Assembly: GCA_021781965.1 (NCBI GenBank)
Contig: JAJXVU010000003.1
Span: 15,880-79,879, forward strand
Source of the DNA: Pseudomonadota bacterium
GTDB lineage: Bacteria > Pseudomonadota > Gammaproteobacteria > UBA1113
Length of the DNA: 64,000 nt
Direction of reading: 5' to 3'
Shown here: positions 2,887-59,360 of the stretch, one piece after another
Numbering within the stretch: position 1 is the first letter of the stretch
Layout of the letters: each line of letters starts with the position of its first letter
The notes under the pieces: model-generated
Told to the model about the DNA's origin: nothing
Seen by the model: the letters and a program-made list of their open reading frames with translations, nothing else
Database searches by the model: none
Made by a program: the position numbers and the translations under genes

Positions 2887-3192
2887 TTATCGCATTAAAT
2901 CGGCCAAAGCTTGCCTAAACTGTGGTCCGTAAAAAACACCGCCTACTGGCACTTTACCTTCTAAGGCTTCTGTAACTTTATACGCCCATTCTGGACCAAA
3001 ACCACCGCACAATTCAAGCATTTGATAGCCTTCTGTGGCCAATGCTTTGGCCACATCTATAACTTTGCTTTTATCGGCCATATCGATGCCTACCGCTTTA
3101 AAGCGATAACCATTTTTTTCCGTCATAATACTATTTTCTTCAGCGCTAAAGCCGGGGGTTAAAAATATAAATGCAAATGAATTAAACTTCAT
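2887..3192 (-). CDS. small hypothetical protein
   Basis: ORF lying between the SDR and OYE genes on the same strand. The real start may be the internal Met (MTEKNGY...). Confidence 0.35.
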   Translation of the reverse strand: MKFNSFAFIFLTPGFSAEENSIMTEKNGYRFKAVGIDMADKSKVIDVAKALATEGYQMLELCGGFGPEWAYKVTEALEGKVPVGGVFYGPQFRQALADLMR

Positions 3193-4303: not shown

Positions 4304-5134
4304 TCAAGTCTCATTTATAAGCAAATTATAATAAGCTGTTTTTAAGCGCTGAACTTGTTCCTGAATAGATCGAATCCCCTTAGGGATAGCCGATAGCTCA
4401 TTCGCTTTTAATGCCGCGTATAGATCTTGAACCGCTTTTTCCAATGCCGGCGTACCGCTATAATTCAAAGCACCGCTGAGCTTATGAAGAATTTGATTCA
4501 TATTTATGCGATCGCGTTTAGCTTCTGCCTTTTTTAACAGGACTAAATCTTGTGGTAACGATGTCATTAATAATTCTAGGGCGTGAATAGCTTTTTCTTT
4601 GCTGTCTACGCCGATGCGCTCCATACCTAATTTCAAGTCAATTACAGGCTTTTCTATCATTTGCATGTCATGCTTAAATACATATGGTTCCCAATAATTT
4701 TCTAAAACCATTCTAGCGCGTTCTTCTGTAAGCGGTTTAGTGATAACTATTTTAAATCCTACCGCTAATGCTTCTTGATGTTTATCTATATCATGATATC
4801 CCGTGACGGCTATAAAAGGTGTATTTTTATTTTTGGACCAAGATTGTGTTTGTGCTTCAGAAATAAGATCTATAGCACTATCTTCTGCTAAGCACAGATC
4901 GGATACTACTAAATCATATCGATTGAGCTTAAGCTTTTGTGCTGCATCAATGGCTGTTTTAGCGGTGTCGATTTTTCCGCTGGTTAAACGCGATAAAATT
5001 TCATATCCTACAAATAAACACAGGCTATCATCTTCAATGAGCAATATATCCTGTGAAAATGGTTTTTCCCCTCTGCTTTTTTGTACGATTTCAATAAGTT
5101 TTGCCGTGGTGTCAATAATATATTCGTTAGCCAT
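4304..5134 (-). CDS. response-regulator receiver domain fused to a C-terminal HPt (histidine phosphotransfer) domain
   Basis: REC residues are present (LLIEDD, VVSDLCLAE, AVTGY, KP). The C-terminus carries an HPt-like HKLSGALNYSG motif (HxxKG-type). Confidence 0.55.
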   Translation of the reverse strand: MANEYIIDTTAKLIEIVQKSRGEKPFSQDILLIEDDSLCLFVGYEILSRLTSGKIDTAKTAIDAAQKLKLNRYDLVVSDLCLAEDSAIDLISEAQTQSWSKNKNTPFIAVTGYHDIDKHQEALAVGFKIVITKPLTEERARMVLENYWEPYVFKHDMQMIEKPVIDLKLGMERIGVDSKEKAIHALELLMTSLPQDLVLLKKAEAKRDRINMNQILHKLSGALNYSGTPALEKAVQDLYAALKANELSAIPKGIRSIQEQVQRLKTAYYNLLINET

Positions 5135-8727: not shown

Positions 8728-8804
8728 TGGTGCGCCCGGAGAGATTCGAACTCCCGACCGCCTGGTTCGTAGCCAGGTACTCTATCCAGCTGAGCTACGG
8801 GCGC
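8728..8804 (-). tRNA. tRNA-Arg (anticodon ACG)
   Basis: The reverse complement folds as a 77-nt cloverleaf: GCGCCCGTAGCTCAGCTGGATAGAGTACCTGGCTACGAACCAGG...TTCGAATC...CCA. Confidence 0.85.
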
Positions 8805-8954
8805 ACATTAATCCATACTCTTCGCATTTGCTTCTTAAGCTTTGTTGCCTTCGCCCATCTCGCACCAGTATATGACAGAGTATGTCACTCCTAACGCTCG
8901 AGGACTAGCCTTCTCGCCTAAAAACCAACTGCTATGAGCATATCACTCTAAACG

Positions 8955-9047
8955 TGGTGGAGAGAGAGGGATTCGAACCCTCGATGAGGCTATAAACCCC
9001 ATACTCCCTTAGCAGGGGAGCGCCTTCGACCACTCGGCCATCTCTCC
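8955..9047 (-). tRNA. tRNA-Ser (anticodon GCT), long variable arm
   Basis: The reverse complement reads GGAGAGATGGCCGAGTGGTCGAAGGCGCTCCCCTGCTAAGGGAG...GGTTCGAATCCCTCTCTCTCCACCA, 93 nt. Confidence 0.85.
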
Positions 9048-24815: not shown

Positions 24816-24865
24816 AGAATCAGCTCTCTGACGGTCTACACTCGGTTACAAACGAATAAACTAAA

Positions 24866-24918
24866 CGCGACCGTTAGGGAGCGGAATTTAACCGAGCCGC
24901 GACCATTAGGGAGCGGGG
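24866..24918. repeat. REP-like element, two direct copies (reverse orientation) of the core CCGCTCCCTAACGGTCGCGGCTCGG
   Basis: Copies read cgcgaccgttagggagcgg and accgagccgcgaccattagggagcgg. The same core recurs at 42824, 51003, 53492, 53593, 56581 and 56668. Confidence 0.5.
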
Positions 24919-25808: not shown

Positions 25809-26075
25809 ATGTTGGTAGAAAATATTACTCTCAACAATAAATTAGGTCTACACACCCGAGCCGCCGCTAAATTGGTTGAACTATCCAGTCGTTTCAGCAG
25901 TCAGATTGAACTCAGTCTAGACGCCAAAAAGGTCAATGCCAAAAGCATTTTAAATGTGATGTTATTATCTGCGGGCAGTGGTTCCCAAATGACAATCACC
26001 ATAGAAGGTACAGATGAGAATGAAGCCATGACAGCATTGAAAGCTTTATTTCACAGCAATTTTGGTGAGGAATAA
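25809..26075 (+). CDS. ptsO: phosphocarrier protein NPr (HPr-like)
   Basis: 88-aa HPr fold (LGLHTRAAAKL with His), located downstream of rapZ. Confidence 0.8.
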   Translation: MLVENITLNNKLGLHTRAAAKLVELSSRFSSQIELSLDAKKVNAKSILNVMLLSAGSGSQMTITIEGTDENEAMTALKALFHSNFGEE

Positions 26076-26123
26076 TGTAATTGCTTGAGCGAAAACAACA
26101 AAGCCTAATGATCAAATGTGAAG

Positions 26124-26376
26124 AGTATACTCACAGCAGTTGGTTTTTAGGCGCGGCGCCGAGCTCGCGAGCACCAGGAGTGTAGTACTCTACATGACTG
26201 GTGCGAGAGGGCGAAGGCAACAAAGCATAAAAATAAAATGCGAAGAGTATACTCATAGCAGTTGGTTTTTAGGCGCGGCGCCGAGGCCTCGAGCACCAGG
26301 AGTGTAGTATTCTACATGACTGGTGCGAGATGGACGAAGGCAACAAAGCATAAAAATCAAATGCTATGAGTATACT
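26124..26376. repeat. two tandem copies of a ~122-bp structured repeat element bounded by AGTATACT palindromes
   Basis: AGTATACT occurs at 26124, 26246 and 26369. Each unit contains the GGCGCGGCGCC palindrome and a nested hairpin GCACCAGGAGTGTAGTACTCTACATGACTGGTGC. The last palindrome overlaps the pmbA stop codon. Confidence 0.6.
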
Positions 26377-27697
26377 AGTCTTTTCCTGCCACCATCATCT
26401 CAGCCACCAATACAGAGCCACTTTCTATATAATTACGATCATTCACATCGTTACCTATGGCGACAATATTGGCAAATATATCTTTTAAGTTACCGGCGAT
26501 AGTCACTCCTTCAACGGGATATTGGATTTTGCCATGCTCTACCCAAAAACCACTCGCCCCTTGTGAATAATCCCCCGTGACTAAGTTAACGCCCATGCCC
26601 ATAACTTCTGTGACTAACAAGCCCCTATCCATTTTTTGCAATAGTGCTTGTTGATCTTCGCCGGTAGAATGCACCAAAATATTATGCGGGCCGCCGGCAT
26701 TGCCGGTTGTTTCTAAGCCCAAGCGCCGTGCAGAATAACTATTTAAAATATAACCTTGCAAAACTCCTGCTTTTACTAAATCGCGCTTTTGTGTAGCCAC
26801 CCCTTCTTTATCAAAATAACTGCTCGCCCAAGCGCGCTGTATGTGTGGGTCTTCGATTATAGTAACACACTCATTCAGAATGGCTTTTCCTACAGTGCCT
26901 TTCAAAAAAGAAGCATCGCGGTATAAATTACCCCCGCTGATCGCGGCTAATAATTCTCCCCATAATCCTGCCACCATGCGTTGACTGAAAATAATAGGCA
27001 TTTTTCCTGTAGAAATGCTTTGTGCACCCAATTTTTGCACGGTATATTCAGCTGCGCGTTTGGCAACTTGACCAAAATCATCTAAAGTTTTTGCATCGCG
27101 GCTGTGTGTATATTCATAATCGCGCTGCATAGCGCCACTTTTATCCGAGGCCAATAAAACACAACTAAAAGCATGCGAGGTAGAACGTACCGTACCACAA
27201 AATCCATGTGAATTGGCATAGACATAATCGGATTGATGCGTATTGAGATTAACCCCTTCTGAATTGCTAATACGCTTATCACTCGCTATGGCCACCGCTT
27301 CAGCTTCTTTTAATAAGGGGATGGCTTCTTCGGGCGTGATTTGCCAAGGATGATATAGATCCAATTCTATTGCTTTTTGTGCCATGCGTTCTTTAGGCGC
27401 TAAGCCTGAAGCGGGATCCTCATCGGTATATTGCGCAATGGTCCATGCTTTATCTAAGCAATGATTTAAGGCTTCTTCTGATAGATCGGAACTACTGACT
27501 ATACCCTGCCGTTGGCCACAATAGACCGTTAAAGTTAAACCTTTATCACGATTAAATTCGACGGTATCAACTTCACCTTTACGCACGTTAACAGTAAAGC
27601 CTTCGCTAAACGTAGCATTGGCTTCCGCCGCACTAGCGCCTTTTTGTTTAGCTTTATTCAATAAAGCTAAAATCGTAGATTCAATATCATCTCTCAT
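26375..27697 (-). CDS. pmbA: metalloprotease PmbA/TldE
   Basis: 440-aa TldD/PmbA-family protein. Confidence 0.85.
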   Translation of the reverse strand: MRDDIESTILALLNKAKQKGASAAEANATFSEGFTVNVRKGEVDTVEFNRDKGLTLTVYCGQRQGIVSSSDLSEEALNHCLDKAWTIAQYTDEDPASGLAPKERMAQKAIELDLYHPWQITPEEAIPLLKEAEAVAIASDKRISNSEGVNLNTHQSDYVYANSHGFCGTVRSTSHAFSCVLLASDKSGAMQRDYEYTHSRDAKTLDDFGQVAKRAAEYTVQKLGAQSISTGKMPIIFSQRMVAGLWGELLAAISGGNLYRDASFLKGTVGKAILNECVTIIEDPHIQRAWASSYFDKEGVATQKRDLVKAGVLQGYILNSYSARRLGLETTGNAGGPHNILVHSTGEDQQALLQKMDRGLLVTEVMGMGVNLVTGDYSQGASGFWVEHGKIQYPVEGVTIAGNLKDIFANIVAIGNDVNDRNYIESGSVLVAEMMVAGKD

Positions 27698-38366: not shown

Positions 38367-38971
38367 TACAGCACGTCTGCATTACCAGACAAATAAGCGC
38401 TCACACCTTCGGAAGTAGGTTTCATCGCTTTTTCGCCTTTTTGCCAGCCTGCAGGGCATACTTCACCGTGTTTGTTGGCAAATTGAATGGCATCGATCAA
38501 ACGTAATATTTCATCTATATCGCGACCGATAGGTAAATCATTGATGATTTCGCTACGTACCAATCCTGTAGCATCCACCAAAACCGCTGCACGGAATGCA
38601 ACGCTAGCCGTAGGATGTTCTATGCCGTAACCCTGGCAAATGCTGTGATTCACATCCGCTACCATCGTATATTTTACAGCACCAATACCGCCCTTGTTGA
38701 TAGGGGTATTGCGCCAAGCAGCATGTGTAAATTGTGAGTCTATAGAAACCGCTATAACTTCTACATTACGCGCTTGAAATTCAGCCATGCGTTTGTCCAG
38801 GGCAATCAGCTCCGTAGGACAAACAAAGGTAAAATCTAAAGGATAAAAGAATATTAAGGCTTCCTTACCCTTGGTGCGCTCAGCAAAATGGTAATCGCTA
38901 ATGATTTCACCATTAGCCAACACCGCGCTAGCTCTAAAATCTGGCGCATTACGCCCTACTAATACCGTCAT
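38366..38971 (-). CDS. ahpC: 2-Cys peroxiredoxin (AhpC/Tsa family)
   Basis: 201 aa with FTFVCPTE (peroxidatic Cys) and the resolving Cys in HGEVCPAGW. Confidence 0.9.
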   Translation of the reverse strand: MTVLVGRNAPDFRASAVLANGEIISDYHFAERTKGKEALIFFYPLDFTFVCPTELIALDKRMAEFQARNVEVIAVSIDSQFTHAAWRNTPINKGGIGAVKYTMVADVNHSICQGYGIEHPTASVAFRAAVLVDATGLVRSEIINDLPIGRDIDEILRLIDAIQFANKHGEVCPAGWQKGEKAMKPTSEGVSAYLSGNADVL

Positions 38972-42810: not shown

Positions 42811-42823
42811 GCATTCAATTCAC

Positions 42824-42849
42824 CCGCTCCCTGGCGGTCGCGGCTCGGT
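42824..42849. repeat. REP-like element copy (CCGCTCCCTGGCGGTCGCGGCTCGG)
   Basis: Lies between the bamB stop and the der start; variant of the core found at 24866 and elsewhere. Confidence 0.5.
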
Positions 42850-50946: not shown

Positions 50947-51002
50947 AATTTTTGTTTACCATGAAAATCTTTATTAGACGTATTAAAGTATATCTCATTC
51001 AT

Positions 51003-51066
51003 CCGCTCCCTAACGGTCGCGGCTCGGTATTGTATTTATAACAGCCCCAACCGTCAGGGAACGGAT
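51003..51066. repeat. REP-like element: core CCGCTCCCTAACGGTCGCGGCTCGG plus inverted partial copy (hairpin)
   Basis: ccgctccctaacggt ... accgtcagggaacgg form an inverted pair lying between the rlmN start and the ndk stop. Confidence 0.5.
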
Positions 51067-52459: not shown

Positions 52460-53385
52460 GCCGTCGTCACCTGTTCCAAAGCTTGCAAAATGATTTTTGG
52501 ATTATCCTGCCCCGTCCCGCTTAATAGCCGCCGCCATAGGCGGCCTTTAGGCTCTCCTAAAAATAAGCCCAACAAAGGTTTTAGCAAAGGATAAAGACGC
52601 GAACCGTTAGCCAACTGTTCACTGGCATAATGATAATAACGACGCACGATTTCAGTGCGTTGAGGTAAGGGAGTACTCGTTGGATATAAGGCACGTTCCG
52701 CTTTAGCTATTAAATAGGGATCATGATAAGCCGCGCGCCCTATCATCACACCACTAAACTGCGGCGCCAAACGGACTATGTCTTCCAAGTTTTGCACACC
52801 ACCATTCAACACAAAAGATAATTGGGGGAAATCTCGTTGCAACTGATGTACCGCGTCGTAGTTTAAAGGCGGCACCGTGCGGTTTTCCTTGGGGCTTAAG
52901 CCTTCTAGCCAGGCATTCCGCGCATGTATAACGAAGGTATTCACTTTAGCTGCTGCCAACTTTTCAATCAGCGGATACAATAATTCCGCTACTTCGGCGC
53001 GACCTATGCCTAAGCGTGTTTTAACGGTAACGGGTAAAGCACTCGCTCCTTGCATGGCTTGAATGCACTCTACTACTAAGTCTGGCTCGGCCATTAAGCA
53101 AGCGCCAAAACGCCCTTCTTGTACTCTAGGGCTAGGACAGCCTACATTCAAATTCACCGCATCGTAGCCATATTCAGCAGCTAAGCGCGTTGCTAGTGCT
53201 AATAACAGTGGATCGGAACCACCCAATTGCAACACCAGTGGATGTTCTGCCTTATCGAAAGCAAGTAAGCGCTCTACATCGCCATGCGCCAATGCCATCG
53301 CCGTTACCATTTCCGTATACAGCAATACTCGGGGACACAATAAGCGCATCAAATAACGATAGTGCCTATCGGTATAGTCCATCAT
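52456..53385 (-). CDS. dusA: tRNA-dihydrouridine(20/20a) synthase DusA
   Basis: MMDYTDRHYRYLMR matches the DusA N-terminus (APMLDWTDRHCRY), with a TIM-barrel flavoenzyme body. Confidence 0.85.
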   Translation of the reverse strand: MMDYTDRHYRYLMRLLCPRVLLYTEMVTAMALAHGDVERLLAFDKAEHPLVLQLGGSDPLLLALATRLAAEYGYDAVNLNVGCPSPRVQEGRFGACLMAEPDLVVECIQAMQGASALPVTVKTRLGIGRAEVAELLYPLIEKLAAAKVNTFVIHARNAWLEGLSPKENRTVPPLNYDAVHQLQRDFPQLSFVLNGGVQNLEDIVRLAPQFSGVMIGRAAYHDPYLIAKAERALYPTSTPLPQRTEIVRRYYHYASEQLANGSRLYPLLKPLLGLFLGEPKGRLWRRLLSGTGQDNPKIILQALEQVTTA

Positions 53386-53431
53386 TGGCGCTATAGATAA
53401 TATGGGATCTTTTTTTATGATGATTCTCCGA

Positions 53432-53620
53432 TTAATACCGTTAAATTGCCATGGCGCGGATAGAGCAAGCCTCGAACAAACCCCTCTTTATCCGCTCCCT
53501 GACGGTCGCGGCTCGGTATATATATCTACTCTTTAATACCGTTAAATTGCCATGGCGCGGATAGAGCAAGCCTCGAAGAAACCCCTCTTTATCCGCTCCC
53601 TGACGGTCGCGGCTCAGTTA
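53432..53620. repeat. two tandem ~95-bp units, each ending in the REP-like core
   Basis: The unit ttaataccgttaaattgccatggcgcggatagagcaagcctcga(a/c)(c/g)aaacccctctttatccgctccctgacggtcgcggctc(g/a)gt is repeated twice. The second copy overlaps the lpd stop codon. Confidence 0.5.
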
Positions 53621-55056: not shown

Positions 55057-55144
55057 TTTATATTAATATCTACGTTTATTCAAAGATGAGTGGCTCGCGA
55101 GCCACCCATTGCAGAAGATCCTCGTACTTACCATACATCATTTA

Positions 55145-55273
55145 TATACTCCAGCAGTTGGTTTTTAGGGTAGAAGACTAGCCCTCGAGCACCAGGAGTG
55201 TAGTACTCTACATGACTGGTGCGAGATGGGCGTAGGCAACACCCCCTAAAAATCAAATGCGAAGAGTATATTA
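55145..55273. repeat. single copy of the ~125-bp structured repeat element, intercistronic between aceF and lpd
   Basis: tatactccagcagttggtttttagg...cgagcaccaggagtgtagtactctacatgactggtgcgagatgggcgtaggcaaca...aatgcgaagagtatatta. The terminal palindrome abuts the aceF stop codon. Confidence 0.55.
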
Positions 55274-56512
55274 GAAGCTAAGCGGAACACCTTCGATATA
55301 TTCCACTAATTGCTTACAAAAGCGCGCACCATCGGCGCCATCAATCACGCGGTGATCATAAGATAAAGACAAAGGTAACATTAAACGTGGCACAAAACTG
55401 CCTTTGTCGTACACCGGTTTATAGCTGGACTTAGACACACCTAGAATCGCCACATCAGGAGCATTGATGATAGGTGTAAAAGCCGTACCACCTATGCCGC
55501 CCAAACTAGAAATGCTGAATGAACTGCCTTGCAATTCAGGCGTTTTTAACGCTTTATTCCGCGCGCGTTCACTGATGCTGGCCAATTCCGCTGCCAATTC
55601 CAACACGGATTTTTTATCTACATCACGCACTACTGGCACTACTAAACCATTCGGTGTATCTACCGCCACACCCAAATGTATATATTGTTTCAATACAATA
55701 GAGGCGCCATCAGCTGACAAAGAAGAATTAAACTGAGGCATCTTTTTCAATGTTGCTGCAACCGCTTTCATGATAAACACCAAGGGCGTTAACTTAAAGC
55801 CTTGTTTTTCGACTTCAGCTTTATGCTCGGCCCTAAAGATCTCTAAATTCGTAATGTCGGCTTCGTCAAATTGAGTCACATGCGGAATAGTGACCCAATT
55901 GCGATGTAAATTCGCGCCTGACAATTTTTTAATTTTGGATAAAGACTCTATGGTAATAGGGCCAAATTGGGCAAAATCAATTTGTGGCGCGGGAGGAAAT
56001 GCAAAACCGCCACCGCCGCCTTGCATACGTGATTGCACATACGCTTTCACATCTTCTTTTGAAATACGACCCTTAGGCCCAGTTGCTGGAATTTGCCTTA
56101 AATCTAAATCCAACTCACGCGCTAATCGTCTAACCGCAGGACCTGCATGCAGATTATCGGCAATAGTGGGTTGCGCCGTTTCTTTAACCGCAGCAGCTAC
56201 AGGTGCTGTTCTCGCGCCCGTTTCTTTTTTATCAGCAACTTTTTCTTCTTTTGCAGGTTTTTCGACGCTGACTTCGGTCTTTAACAATAAAATAACACTG
56301 CCTTCAGTAACTTTATCACCTACTTTAGCACTGACGCTTTCTACGAGGCCCGCATAAGGGCTAGGCACATCCATACTGGCCTTATCAGATTCTAAGGTGA
56401 TAATCGGATCGTCTACGGCGATTGTATCGCCTGCCTTTACTAATACTTCAATGACATCAACCGCCTCACTCTGTCCAATGTCCGGAACTTTTACTTCTAT
56501 TACGTTTGACAT
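55271..56512 (-). CDS. aceF: pyruvate dehydrogenase E2 (dihydrolipoamide acetyltransferase), single lipoyl domain
   Basis: Lipoyl-Lys context ESDKASMDVPS, an Ala/Pro linker, and the catalytic DHRVIDG motif. Confidence 0.9.
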   Translation of the reverse strand: MSNVIEVKVPDIGQSEAVDVIEVLVKAGDTIAVDDPIITLESDKASMDVPSPYAGLVESVSAKVGDKVTEGSVILLLKTEVSVEKPAKEEKVADKKETGARTAPVAAAVKETAQPTIADNLHAGPAVRRLARELDLDLRQIPATGPKGRISKEDVKAYVQSRMQGGGGGFAFPPAPQIDFAQFGPITIESLSKIKKLSGANLHRNWVTIPHVTQFDEADITNLEIFRAEHKAEVEKQGFKLTPLVFIMKAVAATLKKMPQFNSSLSADGASIVLKQYIHLGVAVDTPNGLVVPVVRDVDKKSVLELAAELASISERARNKALKTPELQGSSFSISSLGGIGGTAFTPIINAPDVAILGVSKSSYKPVYDKGSFVPRLMLPLSLSYDHRVIDGADGARFCKQLVEYIEGVPLSF

Positions 56513-56544
56513 CTTAACCTCTTACATAATACATTTTTAATAAC

Positions 56545-56698
56545 ACCCATATTACATGAATTCGAGACTATTACACCCATCCGCTCCCTAACGGTCGCGG
56601 CTCAGTTATCTTGTATAATACATTTTAACAAAACCGATATTTCACGAATTCGCGATTATTATAGCCATCGGCCCATTACGGTCGCGGCTCGGTTATAA
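56545..56698. repeat. two direct copies of an extended (~65-bp) REP-like element between aceE and aceF
   Basis: acccatattacatgaattcgagactattacacccatccgctccctaacggtcgcggctcag, followed by aaccgatatttcacgaattcgcgattattatagccatcggcccattacggtcgcggctcgg. Confidence 0.5.
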
Positions 56699-56699
56699 A

Positions 56700-59360
56700 T
56701 TAACACTTTACAGGATTCTCTTTATTGGGATTAATTCCTAAATCTTTCATCGCTTTTTGCAGTACTTTTAGCTCGATCGACTTTTCATCGTACAGTGCTT
56801 TTAAGCTGGCATAGGCAATCGTATTGCTATCCACTTCAAAGAACTGACGCAAAGCACGTCGCGTATCGCTGCGACCAAAGCCATCTGTACCCAACACCGT
56901 ATAAGAGCGATCGCCCAAATAAGCGCGTATGGGTTCGGCATAAGCACGCACATAATCGGTTGCCGTTAAAATGGGGCCTTTGGTAGTCGCCAAGCATTGC
57001 GTGACATAAGGCACTTTAGCCGTTGCTTCAGGATGCAAACGATTATCGCGTTCTATAGCCCAAGCTTCTCTATATAATTCATTAAAGCTGGGGGCGCTCC
57101 ACACCTGCGCTTCTACACCATAGTTTTGCAATAGCGCTTTAGCCGCAATCACTTCGCGCAGAATAGTACCGGAACCTAATAACTGCACTGTAGGCTTTTG
57201 TGTTGCTTCTATTTTTTCCAAACAATACAAACCACGTATAATGCCCTCGCGTGCACCTTCAGGCATAGCTGGGTGCAGATAGTTTTCATTCATCACCGTG
57301 ATGTAATAATAAACATCTTCATTTAAGCCATACATACGATGCAGTCCCTCTTCAATAATGACAGCTAATTCATAATGAAAAGTAGGATCGTAACTGATGC
57401 AATTTGGTATTAAGCCTGCCATGACATGGCTATGGCCATCTTCGTGTTGTAAGCCTTCACCGGACAAGGTCGTACGGCCCGCGGTAGCGCCTATTAAAAA
57501 ACCACGCGCTTTTTGATCGCCAGCAGCCCAGGCCAAATCGCCAATGCGTTGAAAACCAAACATGGAATAATAAATATAAAAAGGCAACATCGCCAATTGA
57601 TTGGTGTTGTAAGACGTAGCTGCCGCCAACCAGGAAGAAAAAGCACCCGCTTCTGTCAAACCTTCTTCTAAAAGTTGTCCTTTGACATCTTCTTTGTAAT
57701 ACATCAATTCGCCAGAATCGACGGGTTTATATAATTGGCCTTCTATTGAATAAATACCCAATTGACGGAACAAACCTTCCATACCAAAAGTACGTGATTC
57801 ATCGGCCACAATCGGTACAATTCTATCTTTGATACCTTTATCTTTTAACAAACTACTTAAGATACGCACAAAAGCCATGGTGGTAGAATATTCTCTATCG
57901 TGACTCCCCTGCCAATGCGCCTCCCACAGCGCTGCTTCGGGCAATGTTAAGCTACCTTCTGTTAGTTTGCGTTTAGGAAAATCACCGCCTAGGGCTTTAC
58001 GCTGCTGTTGCAAATAGTTTAATTCAGGAGAACCTTCAGTAAATTGCATATAAGGTACTTCTGCTAACTCTTTGTCCCCCACTGGGATCTTCAAACGATC
58101 ACGCATATAGGTCACATCTTCTAAAGCTAATTTTTTCTGGTTGTGGGCTGTATTCTGCGCTTGACCTACTGGACCTAAACCGTAGCCTTTAACACTTTTA
58201 GCCAGGATAACCGTAGGCCGACCATTGTTTGCGTCCACTGCTTGTTTATAAGCGGCGTAGACCTTTTTGCGATCCAACCCACCATAGCGCATTTCAAAAA
58301 GCGTTTCATCCGATAAATGCTCGACCATGGCCAATAAACGTGGATCACCACCAAATAACACTTCTCTAACCACCGAGCCATCTTTAGCTTGGCATAATTG
58401 ATAATCGCCATCGACCATATCCATAATGCGTTGATGCAATAAGCCTTCCGTATCACGAGCAAATAATTCATCCCATTCGCTGCCCCAAATGACTTTAATC
58501 ACGTTAAAGCCTACGCCGCGAAAATGACTTTCTAATTCTTGGATGATCTTACCATTGCCACGCACCGGGCCATCTAAACGCTGCAAATTGCAGTTGATCA
58601 CAAAAATAAGATTATCCAACTGTTCTTTTTGCGCGATATGCAATGCGCCTACCGATTCTGGTTCATCCATTTCACCATCGCCACAAAACACCCATACTTT
58701 ACGGCCAGAGGTATCTTGCAAACCGCGATTCTGCAAATATTTCAAAAATCGCGCTTGATAGATCGCTTGTATAGGACCTAAACCCATCGATACCGTTGGA
58801 AATTGCCAAAAATCCGGCATTAGCCAGGGATGCGGATAAGAAGAAATACCTTCACCACCCACTTCTTGACGGAAATGGTCTAGTTGTTTAGCGGATAAAC
58901 AACCCATTAAATAAGCAAAAGCATATATGCCTGGAGACGAGTGTCCCTGCATATAGACGCAATCGCCATGTGAAGCATCGTCTACGCTGCGAAAAAAGTG
59001 CAATAACCCTACTTCATATAATATAGCCGAAGATGCAAAGGTTGAAATGTGACCGTCCACACCCGGAGCATTACGCGAAGCGCGTACCACCATGGCCATA
59101 GCATCCCAGCGCATAAAAGCATCGATACGCTCTTCCAAAGCGAGATCGCCTGGATAAGCAACTTCGTCTTCTATTGCGATGGTATTGATATAGTCCGTAG
59201 TCGTTAAGGGTGCATTCACACCCAAACGCCGTGCTTTGTCTAATACCCGCGTTAAAATGTAATCGGCACGTTCAACCCCTTCTTCACGAATCAGGGAATC
59301 CACTGCATCTACCCACTCCTGTGTCTCTGTAGGATCAACATCGATTAAATTCTTTTTCAT
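56700..59360 (-). CDS. aceE: pyruvate dehydrogenase E1 component (homodimeric type)
   Basis: 886 aa; the N-terminus MKKNLIDVDPTETQEWVDAVDSL parallels E. coli AceE. Confidence 0.95.
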   Translation of the reverse strand: MKKNLIDVDPTETQEWVDAVDSLIREEGVERADYILTRVLDKARRLGVNAPLTTTDYINTIAIEDEVAYPGDLALEERIDAFMRWDAMAMVVRASRNAPGVDGHISTFASSAILYEVGLLHFFRSVDDASHGDCVYMQGHSSPGIYAFAYLMGCLSAKQLDHFRQEVGGEGISSYPHPWLMPDFWQFPTVSMGLGPIQAIYQARFLKYLQNRGLQDTSGRKVWVFCGDGEMDEPESVGALHIAQKEQLDNLIFVINCNLQRLDGPVRGNGKIIQELESHFRGVGFNVIKVIWGSEWDELFARDTEGLLHQRIMDMVDGDYQLCQAKDGSVVREVLFGGDPRLLAMVEHLSDETLFEMRYGGLDRKKVYAAYKQAVDANNGRPTVILAKSVKGYGLGPVGQAQNTAHNQKKLALEDVTYMRDRLKIPVGDKELAEVPYMQFTEGSPELNYLQQQRKALGGDFPKRKLTEGSLTLPEAALWEAHWQGSHDREYSTTMAFVRILSSLLKDKGIKDRIVPIVADESRTFGMEGLFRQLGIYSIEGQLYKPVDSGELMYYKEDVKGQLLEEGLTEAGAFSSWLAAATSYNTNQLAMLPFYIYYSMFGFQRIGDLAWAAGDQKARGFLIGATAGRTTLSGEGLQHEDGHSHVMAGLIPNCISYDPTFHYELAVIIEEGLHRMYGLNEDVYYYITVMNENYLHPAMPEGAREGIIRGLYCLEKIEATQKPTVQLLGSGTILREVIAAKALLQNYGVEAQVWSAPSFNELYREAWAIERDNRLHPEATAKVPYVTQCLATTKGPILTATDYVRAYAEPIRAYLGDRSYTVLGTDGFGRSDTRRALRQFFEVDSNTIAYASLKALYDEKSIELKVLQKAMKDLGINPNKENPVKC

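Follow-up and report, generated by a model that had tools for sequence, protein, structure and literature searches.

The window analyzed here, a stretch of 64,000 nucleotides from an uncultured gammaproteobacterium, carries copies of a short palindromic repeat in the spacers between hpf and rapZ, bamB and der, ndk and rlmN, lpd and dusA, and aceE and aceF; these gene identities had been given in the preliminary description and were borne out by Pfam lists and translations. A Hamming scan of the 64-kb window (at most 8 mismatches in 25 positions) revealed 10 copies or remnants of the core at six intergenic sites, compared to 0.13 in shuffled sequences (Table 1). With at most 3 mismatches to the 25-mer, 6 matches were left, compared to 0 in 100 shuffles, and the 11-nt center of the core, GGTCGCGGCTC, occurs exactly 7 times in the window, where 0.41 occurrences are expected. 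Six window copies have E values of at most 2.5e-5 with a covariance model derived from copies in other genomes. Every copy located before was found again, and one degenerate copy, directly after hpf, had been missed; taken alone this match is weak, and only its context speaks for it. The preliminary description had also placed all copies in intergenic DNA, which holds for nine that lie between ORFs but not for the tenth (53591-53617), whose foot overlaps lpd and supplies its stop codon. The strand that forms the structure is complementary to the one written in that description, and it is this GNNA hairpin strand that has the sense of the flanking genes at all six window loci.

Table 1. Repeat copies and associated features in the 64-kb window
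Position	Strand	Feature	Support
24819..24845	-	Degenerate inverted copy, directly after hpf stop	19/25 positions; absent from covariance model matches
24860..24886	+	5'-truncated REP without foot, in tandem with 24892-24918	Covariance model 21.1 bits, E 0.03
24892..24918	+	Intact REP, loop ATTA, one stem C changed to A, hpf-rapZ spacer	Covariance model 36.1 bits
42795..42816	-	3' extension module (GAATGCACTCAATATGGGCTTT), also in both aceE-aceF units (56542-56563, 56630-56651)	Alignment
42822..42848	-	Intact REP, GCCA loop, 9 nt past bamB stop, upstream of der	Covariance model 40.8 bits
51001..51027	-	Intact REP, consensus copy, ndk-rlmN spacer	0 mismatches; covariance model 41.6 bits
51040..51066	+	Degenerate inverted partner of 51001-51027, REPIN-like dimer	6 mismatches; covariance model E 7.6 (near threshold)
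53432..53618	-	Two 101-bp tandem units, lpd-dusA spacer	98% identical over 86 nt
53490..53516	-	Intact REP, second 101-bp tandem unit, lpd-dusA spacer	0 mismatches; covariance model 42.9 bits
53591..53617	-	Intact REP, CTGA foot contains lpd stop TGA (53616-53614)	Covariance model 40.9 bits
56522..56699	-	Whole 178-nt aceE-aceF insertion, two tandem ~87-nt units	Filled versus empty site comparison, spacer lengths, alignment
56579..56605	-	Intact REP, CTGA foot, GTTA loop, proximal 87-nt unit, aceE-aceF spacer	1 mismatch to consensus; covariance model 39.5 bits, E 5e-6
56666..56692	-	REP with degenerate 3' arm (CCGAGCCGCGACCGTAATGGGCCGATG), distal 87-nt unit, aceE-aceF spacer	Covariance model 13.4 bits, E 1.2 (near threshold)
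8815..8942		Second repeat family	
26074..26381		Second repeat family	
36987..37247		Second repeat family	
38235..38367		Second repeat family	
55143..55277		Second repeat family	

The inserted DNA is longer than the repeat itself (128 to 220 bp, compared to a 27-nt REP). At least three unrelated subfamilies can be told apart by their flanks: one of the two aceE-aceF units and bamB-der, one of the two lpd-dus units, and one of ndk-rlmN and hpf-rapZ. The 27-nt core alone is invariant between loci. An extension shared by the extended copies (gaattc..atatggg), as pointed out in the preliminary description, is real but is present in three copies only. In the aceE-aceF spacer, the insert directly adjoins the stop codon of aceE (TAA, 56700-56702) on one side and the ribosome-binding site of aceF (GAGGTT) on the other, and TAA is found at both junctions. 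Each of the 101-bp units between lpd and dusA contains one REP, a spacer, and a second, inverted REP that is heavily degenerate. Closer inspection of this junction showed that the lpd stop codon TGA is made by the CTGA foot of the repeat (53614-53617), whereas lpd of the sister species ends with its own TAA, 9 nt before dusA; at 53385-53410, the window has ATA where the sister species has the dusA start codon ATG, and the ORF starts six codons downstream. At two of the six window loci (ndk-rlmN and hpf-rapZ in Table 1), the only inverted partner is a degenerate one, and the flanks of the last two subfamilies carry such degenerate partners; dimers are frequent in other genomes.

The core reads CnGA-G-CCGC-GA-CC-GNNA-GG-GA-GCGG, with CCGA or CTGA as the foot in the window copies and CnGA elsewhere, and folds into an 8-position hairpin in which six Watson-Crick pairs are broken by a tandem G.A/A.G mismatch and capped by a four-base GNNA loop. 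Covarying positions in over 100 independent copies outside this genome support the fold. The covariance model was derived from 108 distinct copies, of which 104 belong to other genomes and four to the window. In the alignment of these copies, 95.5% of the cells are Watson-Crick or wobble pairs, compared to 31 to 52% with the partner columns slid as a control, and 32 cells carry changes on both sides, compared to 5.3 in shuffles (a value of 32 was reached in 0 of 500). Among 172 copies in other genomes, none of them a search seed, the two inner pairs changed from CG to GC in 35, and changes from CG to TA (UA) were found as well; the G.A position is near-invariant, the neighboring A.G is jointly replaced by C.A in 44 of the 172, and the middle bases of the GNNA loop are free. 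The coordinated exchange of A.G for C.A (alignment columns 11 and 20), seen in about one-quarter of the copies and mostly in Planctomycetota-type variants, is not a Watson-Crick compensation and may be due to protein contacts. A 30-nt RNA of the hairpin folds with −12.1 kcal/mol (z −2.3); as DNA, single copies do not fold more stably than shuffles (z −0.4 to −0.7). For the dimer at 51001-51066, values of −46.7 kcal/mol (z −8.8) as RNA and −16.1 kcal/mol (z −4.0) as DNA were calculated.

A repeat of this form has been described before. Quentin, Siguier, Chandler and Fichant (2018, BMC Genomics 19:475; PMC6006769) delineated a small "class 3" of HUH-Y1 proteins (TnpA_Y1) in Planctomycetes, Acidobacteria, and Proteobacteria, and their Table S1 lists CCGAGCCGCGACCGTAAGGGAGCGGA, with the fold .....((((..((....))..))))., by class 3 genes of five L. 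pneumophila strains and CAGAGCCGCGACCGTTAGGGAGCG.. beside class 3 genes of Solibacter usitatus. They noted "atypical secondary structures with a CnGA foot", counted about 600 copies in S. usitatus, and termed the arrangement REPtron-like; half of the published class 3 proteins have no catalytic motifs, and, according to the authors, experiments on class 3 HUH-Y1 REPtrons are still needed (PMC6006769). The window copies have the form given in that Table S1, a CnGA foot followed by CCGCGACC-GNNA-GGGAGCGG, and five of them differ from the published hairpin by 0 or 1 mismatch. The entry in Table S1 is the window motif, with the fold that we had derived independently; the window thus carries the REP family already reported with class 3 TnpA_Y1, in a new host. 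The preliminary description, which proposed a REP- or BIME-like element with a possible link to a REP-associated tyrosine transposase, was right about the kind of element. As a refinement, the repeat is no canonical GTAG-headed REP of a class 2 RAYT: in the published work its partner is class 3 TnpA_Y1, it has a CnGA foot, and its stem includes a tandem G.A mismatch. The influence on mRNA stability or termination and the role as an IS target that were named in that description are putative for this repeat.

Other known repeats were compared and set aside. The GTAG REP superfamily has a GT[AG]G foot, which is missing here, and the motif sequence gave no match to it; the QMITE1 and QMITE2 REPs of Coxiella are GTAG headed, and the window host is not C. 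burnetii. The description of the CGTC-tagged REPs (Di Nocera et al. 2013), with a CGTC head, an 8- to 9-bp stem that begins with A-T pairs, and a tail of CCA, disagrees with the motif found here. A literature search with the literal motif sequence returned no relevant match. At the gathering threshold, Rfam reported two tRNAs only for the whole window, and the best hit in the focal region was a chance match to a miRNA with an E value of 0.49.

The preliminary description had named confinement of the core to this window as the observation that would speak against a repeat family. The core was found in at least 120 genome stretches (in a scan with one genome per species), in 71 viral contigs, and in Legionella records. 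Among the matches listed, most are from Bryobacterales/Solibacteraceae (Acidobacteriota) and Planctomycetota, others from Legionella and another gammaproteobacterium, and a few from Chloroflexota and Binataceae, a range that includes the published host phyla of class 3. Across phyla, only the core is shared, and in other genomes it often forms inverted dimers with a 10- to 40-nt spacer. The only matches in the plasmid database were intergenic copies of Legionella adelaidensis, with no transposase near them. Clustering of the ORFs around the copies gave no enriched family in cellular loci and phage structural genes only in viral contigs; ORFs bracketed by two copies were spurious and without a Pfam match.

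Several arrangements in these genomes deserve mention. In related phage fragments from IMG/VR (L150, L159, L161, L164, L174, L177, and L187), the motif lies 30 to 200 nt downstream of the major capsid gene, with the hairpin strand always antisense to that gene. In Bryobacterales and another Acidobacteria MAG (L010 at ~3045-3085, L023, L024 at ~5050-5095, and L091 at ~175-225), a full copy is followed by two or three tandem partial repeats that correspond to one half of it (GGTCGCGGCTCGGTAAA-like), which suggests slippage or repeated partial copying. A metagenome contig with 33% GC (L220, positions 1-190) has three antisense copies in tandem, with a period of ~55 nt, and then a single copy in sense orientation, which together make up a BIME-like cluster in a host rich in AT.

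Comparison with relatives dates the copies in the window. The closest relatives are MAG contigs 99.1 to 99.5% identical to it (L121 to L123), and the nearest other lineage is a sister species (L125) with 90.5% nucleotide identity and 95% identity in AceE. In the sister species and in L129, the spacers are short: 9 nt between aceE and aceF (187 bp in the window), 26 and 25 nt, respectively, between aceF and lpd (214 bp in the window), and 9 nt between lpd and dus (229 bp in the window); for ndk and rlmN, where the comparison covers L125, the spacer is 9 nt, compared to 137 bp in the window. No REP copy was found in the syntenic 20.5 kb of the sister species, where the window has seven, and none in the syntenic loci of L128 and L129; L126/L127 has one copy, at a site different from those in the window. 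Furthermore, the lpd-dusA spacer has one 101-bp unit in strain L121 (99.5% identical) and two in the window and L122. Because the junctions of the sister species are empty and even almost identical strains have unequal numbers of the 101-bp unit (one or two), the window copies are recent insertions; insertion was followed by local duplication, and this change is ongoing.

The same junctions of the pyruvate dehydrogenase operon carry other GC-rich palindromic repeats (e.g., tgtcatccctgcgaaagcagggat...) in two more distant relatives, L126 (12662-12793, 14063-14328, and 15760-15936) and L128 (5424-5695 and 6941-7095); the spacers of this operon are repeatedly colonized by small repeats in this clade. 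The window itself contains a second, unrelated repeat family of palindromic, MITE-like units of about 122 to 135 nt with the ends TATATACTC...GAGTATATA, which are sometimes arranged in tandem (Table 1). The DNA fold of 55140-55280 has a z score of −6.1; this copy is located between aceF and lpd and is missing in L125 and L129, and another lies between two tRNA genes (8731-8804 and 8958-9047). A further observation concerns an ORF of 1,201 amino acids (9729-13334) without an assigned family, in which internal repeats of ~45 nt (12123-12265) encode an acidic, serine-rich stretch. Relatives have large proteins with DnaJ and ankyrin domains near this position, which suggests an intracellular lifestyle.

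What moves the repeat was sought among the genes nearby. A regular expression search for the motifs of RAYT and of class 3 genes (for the latter NHVH ... YV[VI]xEQ in about 178 amino acids) retrieved no Y1/HUH gene from the 64-kb window or from 2.1 Mb of related loci, and Pfam gave no transposase among the unassigned window ORFs. When metagenomes were scanned for the REPtron variant of L. pneumophila, 64 stretches were retrieved, none of them with a class 3 gene. Since no Y1/HUH gene was found in the window or in these 2.1 Mb, it is from the literature that we connect this genome with a class 3 enzyme; together with the insertion polymorphism, the published association leads us to infer that such an enzyme mobilizes the repeats here. 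We consider it likely that the copies are non-autonomous, REP-type repeats of the class 3 HUH-Y1 family that spread recently into short intergenic gaps.

A mechanism can be outlined along the following lines. One DNA strand of each copy forms the short hairpin CCGC-GA-CC / GNNA / GG-GA-GCGG behind the CnGA foot. This hairpin would be bound in single-stranded DNA by a Y1 enzyme whose gene is located outside the window; the enzyme would then, by analogy with TnpA of IS200/IS605 and TnpA_REP of E. coli, cut and rejoin the DNA beside the foot, by which the repeat would be copied to new sites. In this lineage, the repeats recently entered very short gaps between cotranscribed genes, where insertions are tolerated, and were then duplicated locally. 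An effect on mRNA, for example by the hairpin as a barrier to 3' exonucleases between cistrons, would be a by-product. We know of no biochemistry of class 3 enzymes. Simple copying of a REP does not explain the inserts, because they are far longer than the 27-nt REP and have unrelated flanks. A more far-reaching reading is that a single near-invariant REP in at least four phyla and in phages reflects a REPtron that is active now and moves between phyla, with a burst in this lineage after its split from the REP-free sister species at ~90% identity; we regard this as possible but rather doubtful.

Other explanations of the repeat have to be weighed against mobile REPs of class 3. In RNA, GNNA loops and tandem G.A pairs occur widely as modules, and a hairpin kept by selection in transcripts across phyla, as a 3' exonuclease barrier or a processing or protein-binding site, would fit with the stable GNNA strand in the gene sense at all six window loci, with the folding energy of the 30-nt RNA, and with the recurrence of the motif right downstream of the major capsid gene in phage contigs. 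However, single copies in cellular genomes and metagenomes are without orientation bias (8 sense versus 9 antisense), the motif in the phage contigs is antisense, so that the weaker complement would be transcribed, and the orientation relative to GC skew disagrees between the window and other genomes; for these reasons, the orientation in the window is not taken as a sign of RNA function. Moreover, the flanking genes are unrelated, the sister species has no copies at the same operon junctions, and Rfam has no match, all of which makes a functional RNA element unlikely. That GC-rich hairpins stand directly past stop codons could also point to intrinsic terminators or attenuators between cistrons, a reading that we find scarcely credible: no T-run follows the hairpin at any inspected window copy, no terminator-like site was predicted in 56450-56760, single copies fold as DNA like shuffles, and some copies are inside operons that need read-through downstream (aceE-aceF-lpd).

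The foot, the imperfect palindrome, and the inverted dimers common in other genomes are also features of canonical REPs or REPINs served by a class 2 RAYT (TnpA_REP), and passive landing pads of IS110/IS1111 have a precedent in the Coxiella REPs, which are known IS1111 targets (PMC5896051). Against both, the foot is CnGA instead of GT[AG]G, neither the GTAG nor the CGTC superfamily matches, class 3 genes are the published partners (PMC6006769), and neither an IS nor a RAYT is present within the window; we hold this origin to be quite improbable. The mobile unit could, in turn, be a longer MITE of about 90 to 130 bp, with the REP as just one part of it and a conventional DDE transposase as its mover, as the length of the inserts, the 3' module common to three copies, and the TAA at both aceE|aceF junctions might indicate. 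Comparison of filled and empty junctions uncovered no terminal inverted repeats apart from REP dimers and, at most, TAA at both ends of one insert; in addition, the flanks differ by locus around an invariant core, the only part shared across phyla, so that a MITE is very unlikely. Mobilization as a class 3 REP therefore remains the reading that we prefer.

That the repeat is real and its family known, and that a new host and a recent spread are what is added here, is well supported. Selfish repeats of this kind are known, and its place in a published but barely studied class 3 HUH-Y1 REPtron family is now assigned to what had been an unannotated sequence. The window adds pairs of filled and empty sites in essential operons, a duplication polymorphism at the strain level, and the same hairpin in several phyla and in phage contigs. 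Should an active REPtron indeed be at work, the clean filled/empty pairs could reveal the insertion rule of an uncharacterized class of transposases. For annotation, the repeats account for the swollen operon spacers and for the repeat-supplied stop codon of lpd, and such repeats should not be called terminators or small ORFs.

The window repeat can be compared with four known systems. It resembles the class 3 repeats (PMC6006769) in sequence and predicted fold (CCGAGCCGCGACCGNNAGGGAGCGGA), CnGA foot, high copy number, extragenic location, and host phyla; it differs in that its host, an uncultured gammaproteobacterium, is outside that study, that the window copies are mostly single or in tandem instead of flanking a gene, and that the inserted DNA extends beyond the hairpin. 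With the QMITE2/GTAG REP of Coxiella burnetii (Wachter et al. 2018, PMC5896051), it has in common small GC-rich palindromes in 3' untranslated regions and intergenic DNA of an AT-rich, intracellular-type gammaproteobacterium, but QMITE2 has the sequence GTAGGTTGGGC..., a GTAG head, and a role as an IS1111 target. The subterminal hairpins of IS200/IS605 elements (IS608 and ISDra2) are likewise 20 to 25 nt long, have a 5'-foot guide tetranucleotide, and are recognized in single-stranded DNA (PMC6006769), a recognition that may by analogy apply to the window copies; the latter, in contrast, are dispersed, are not paired as left and right ends, and have no transposase or cargo between them. Like canonical REP/BIME/REPIN elements with RAYT (class 2 TnpA_REP, in E. 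coli and Pseudomonas), finally, the repeat is a short, imperfect, extragenic palindrome with a 5' tetranucleotide foot, often an inverted dimer, and presumably a single-stranded DNA substrate of a Y1 HUH enzyme. Its foot, however, is CnGA where the canonical one is GT[AG]G, its stem has a tandem G.A mismatch in place of the canonical bulge, and its core is common to several phyla, whereas canonical REPs are, according to the REPIN/RAYT papers, lineage specific.
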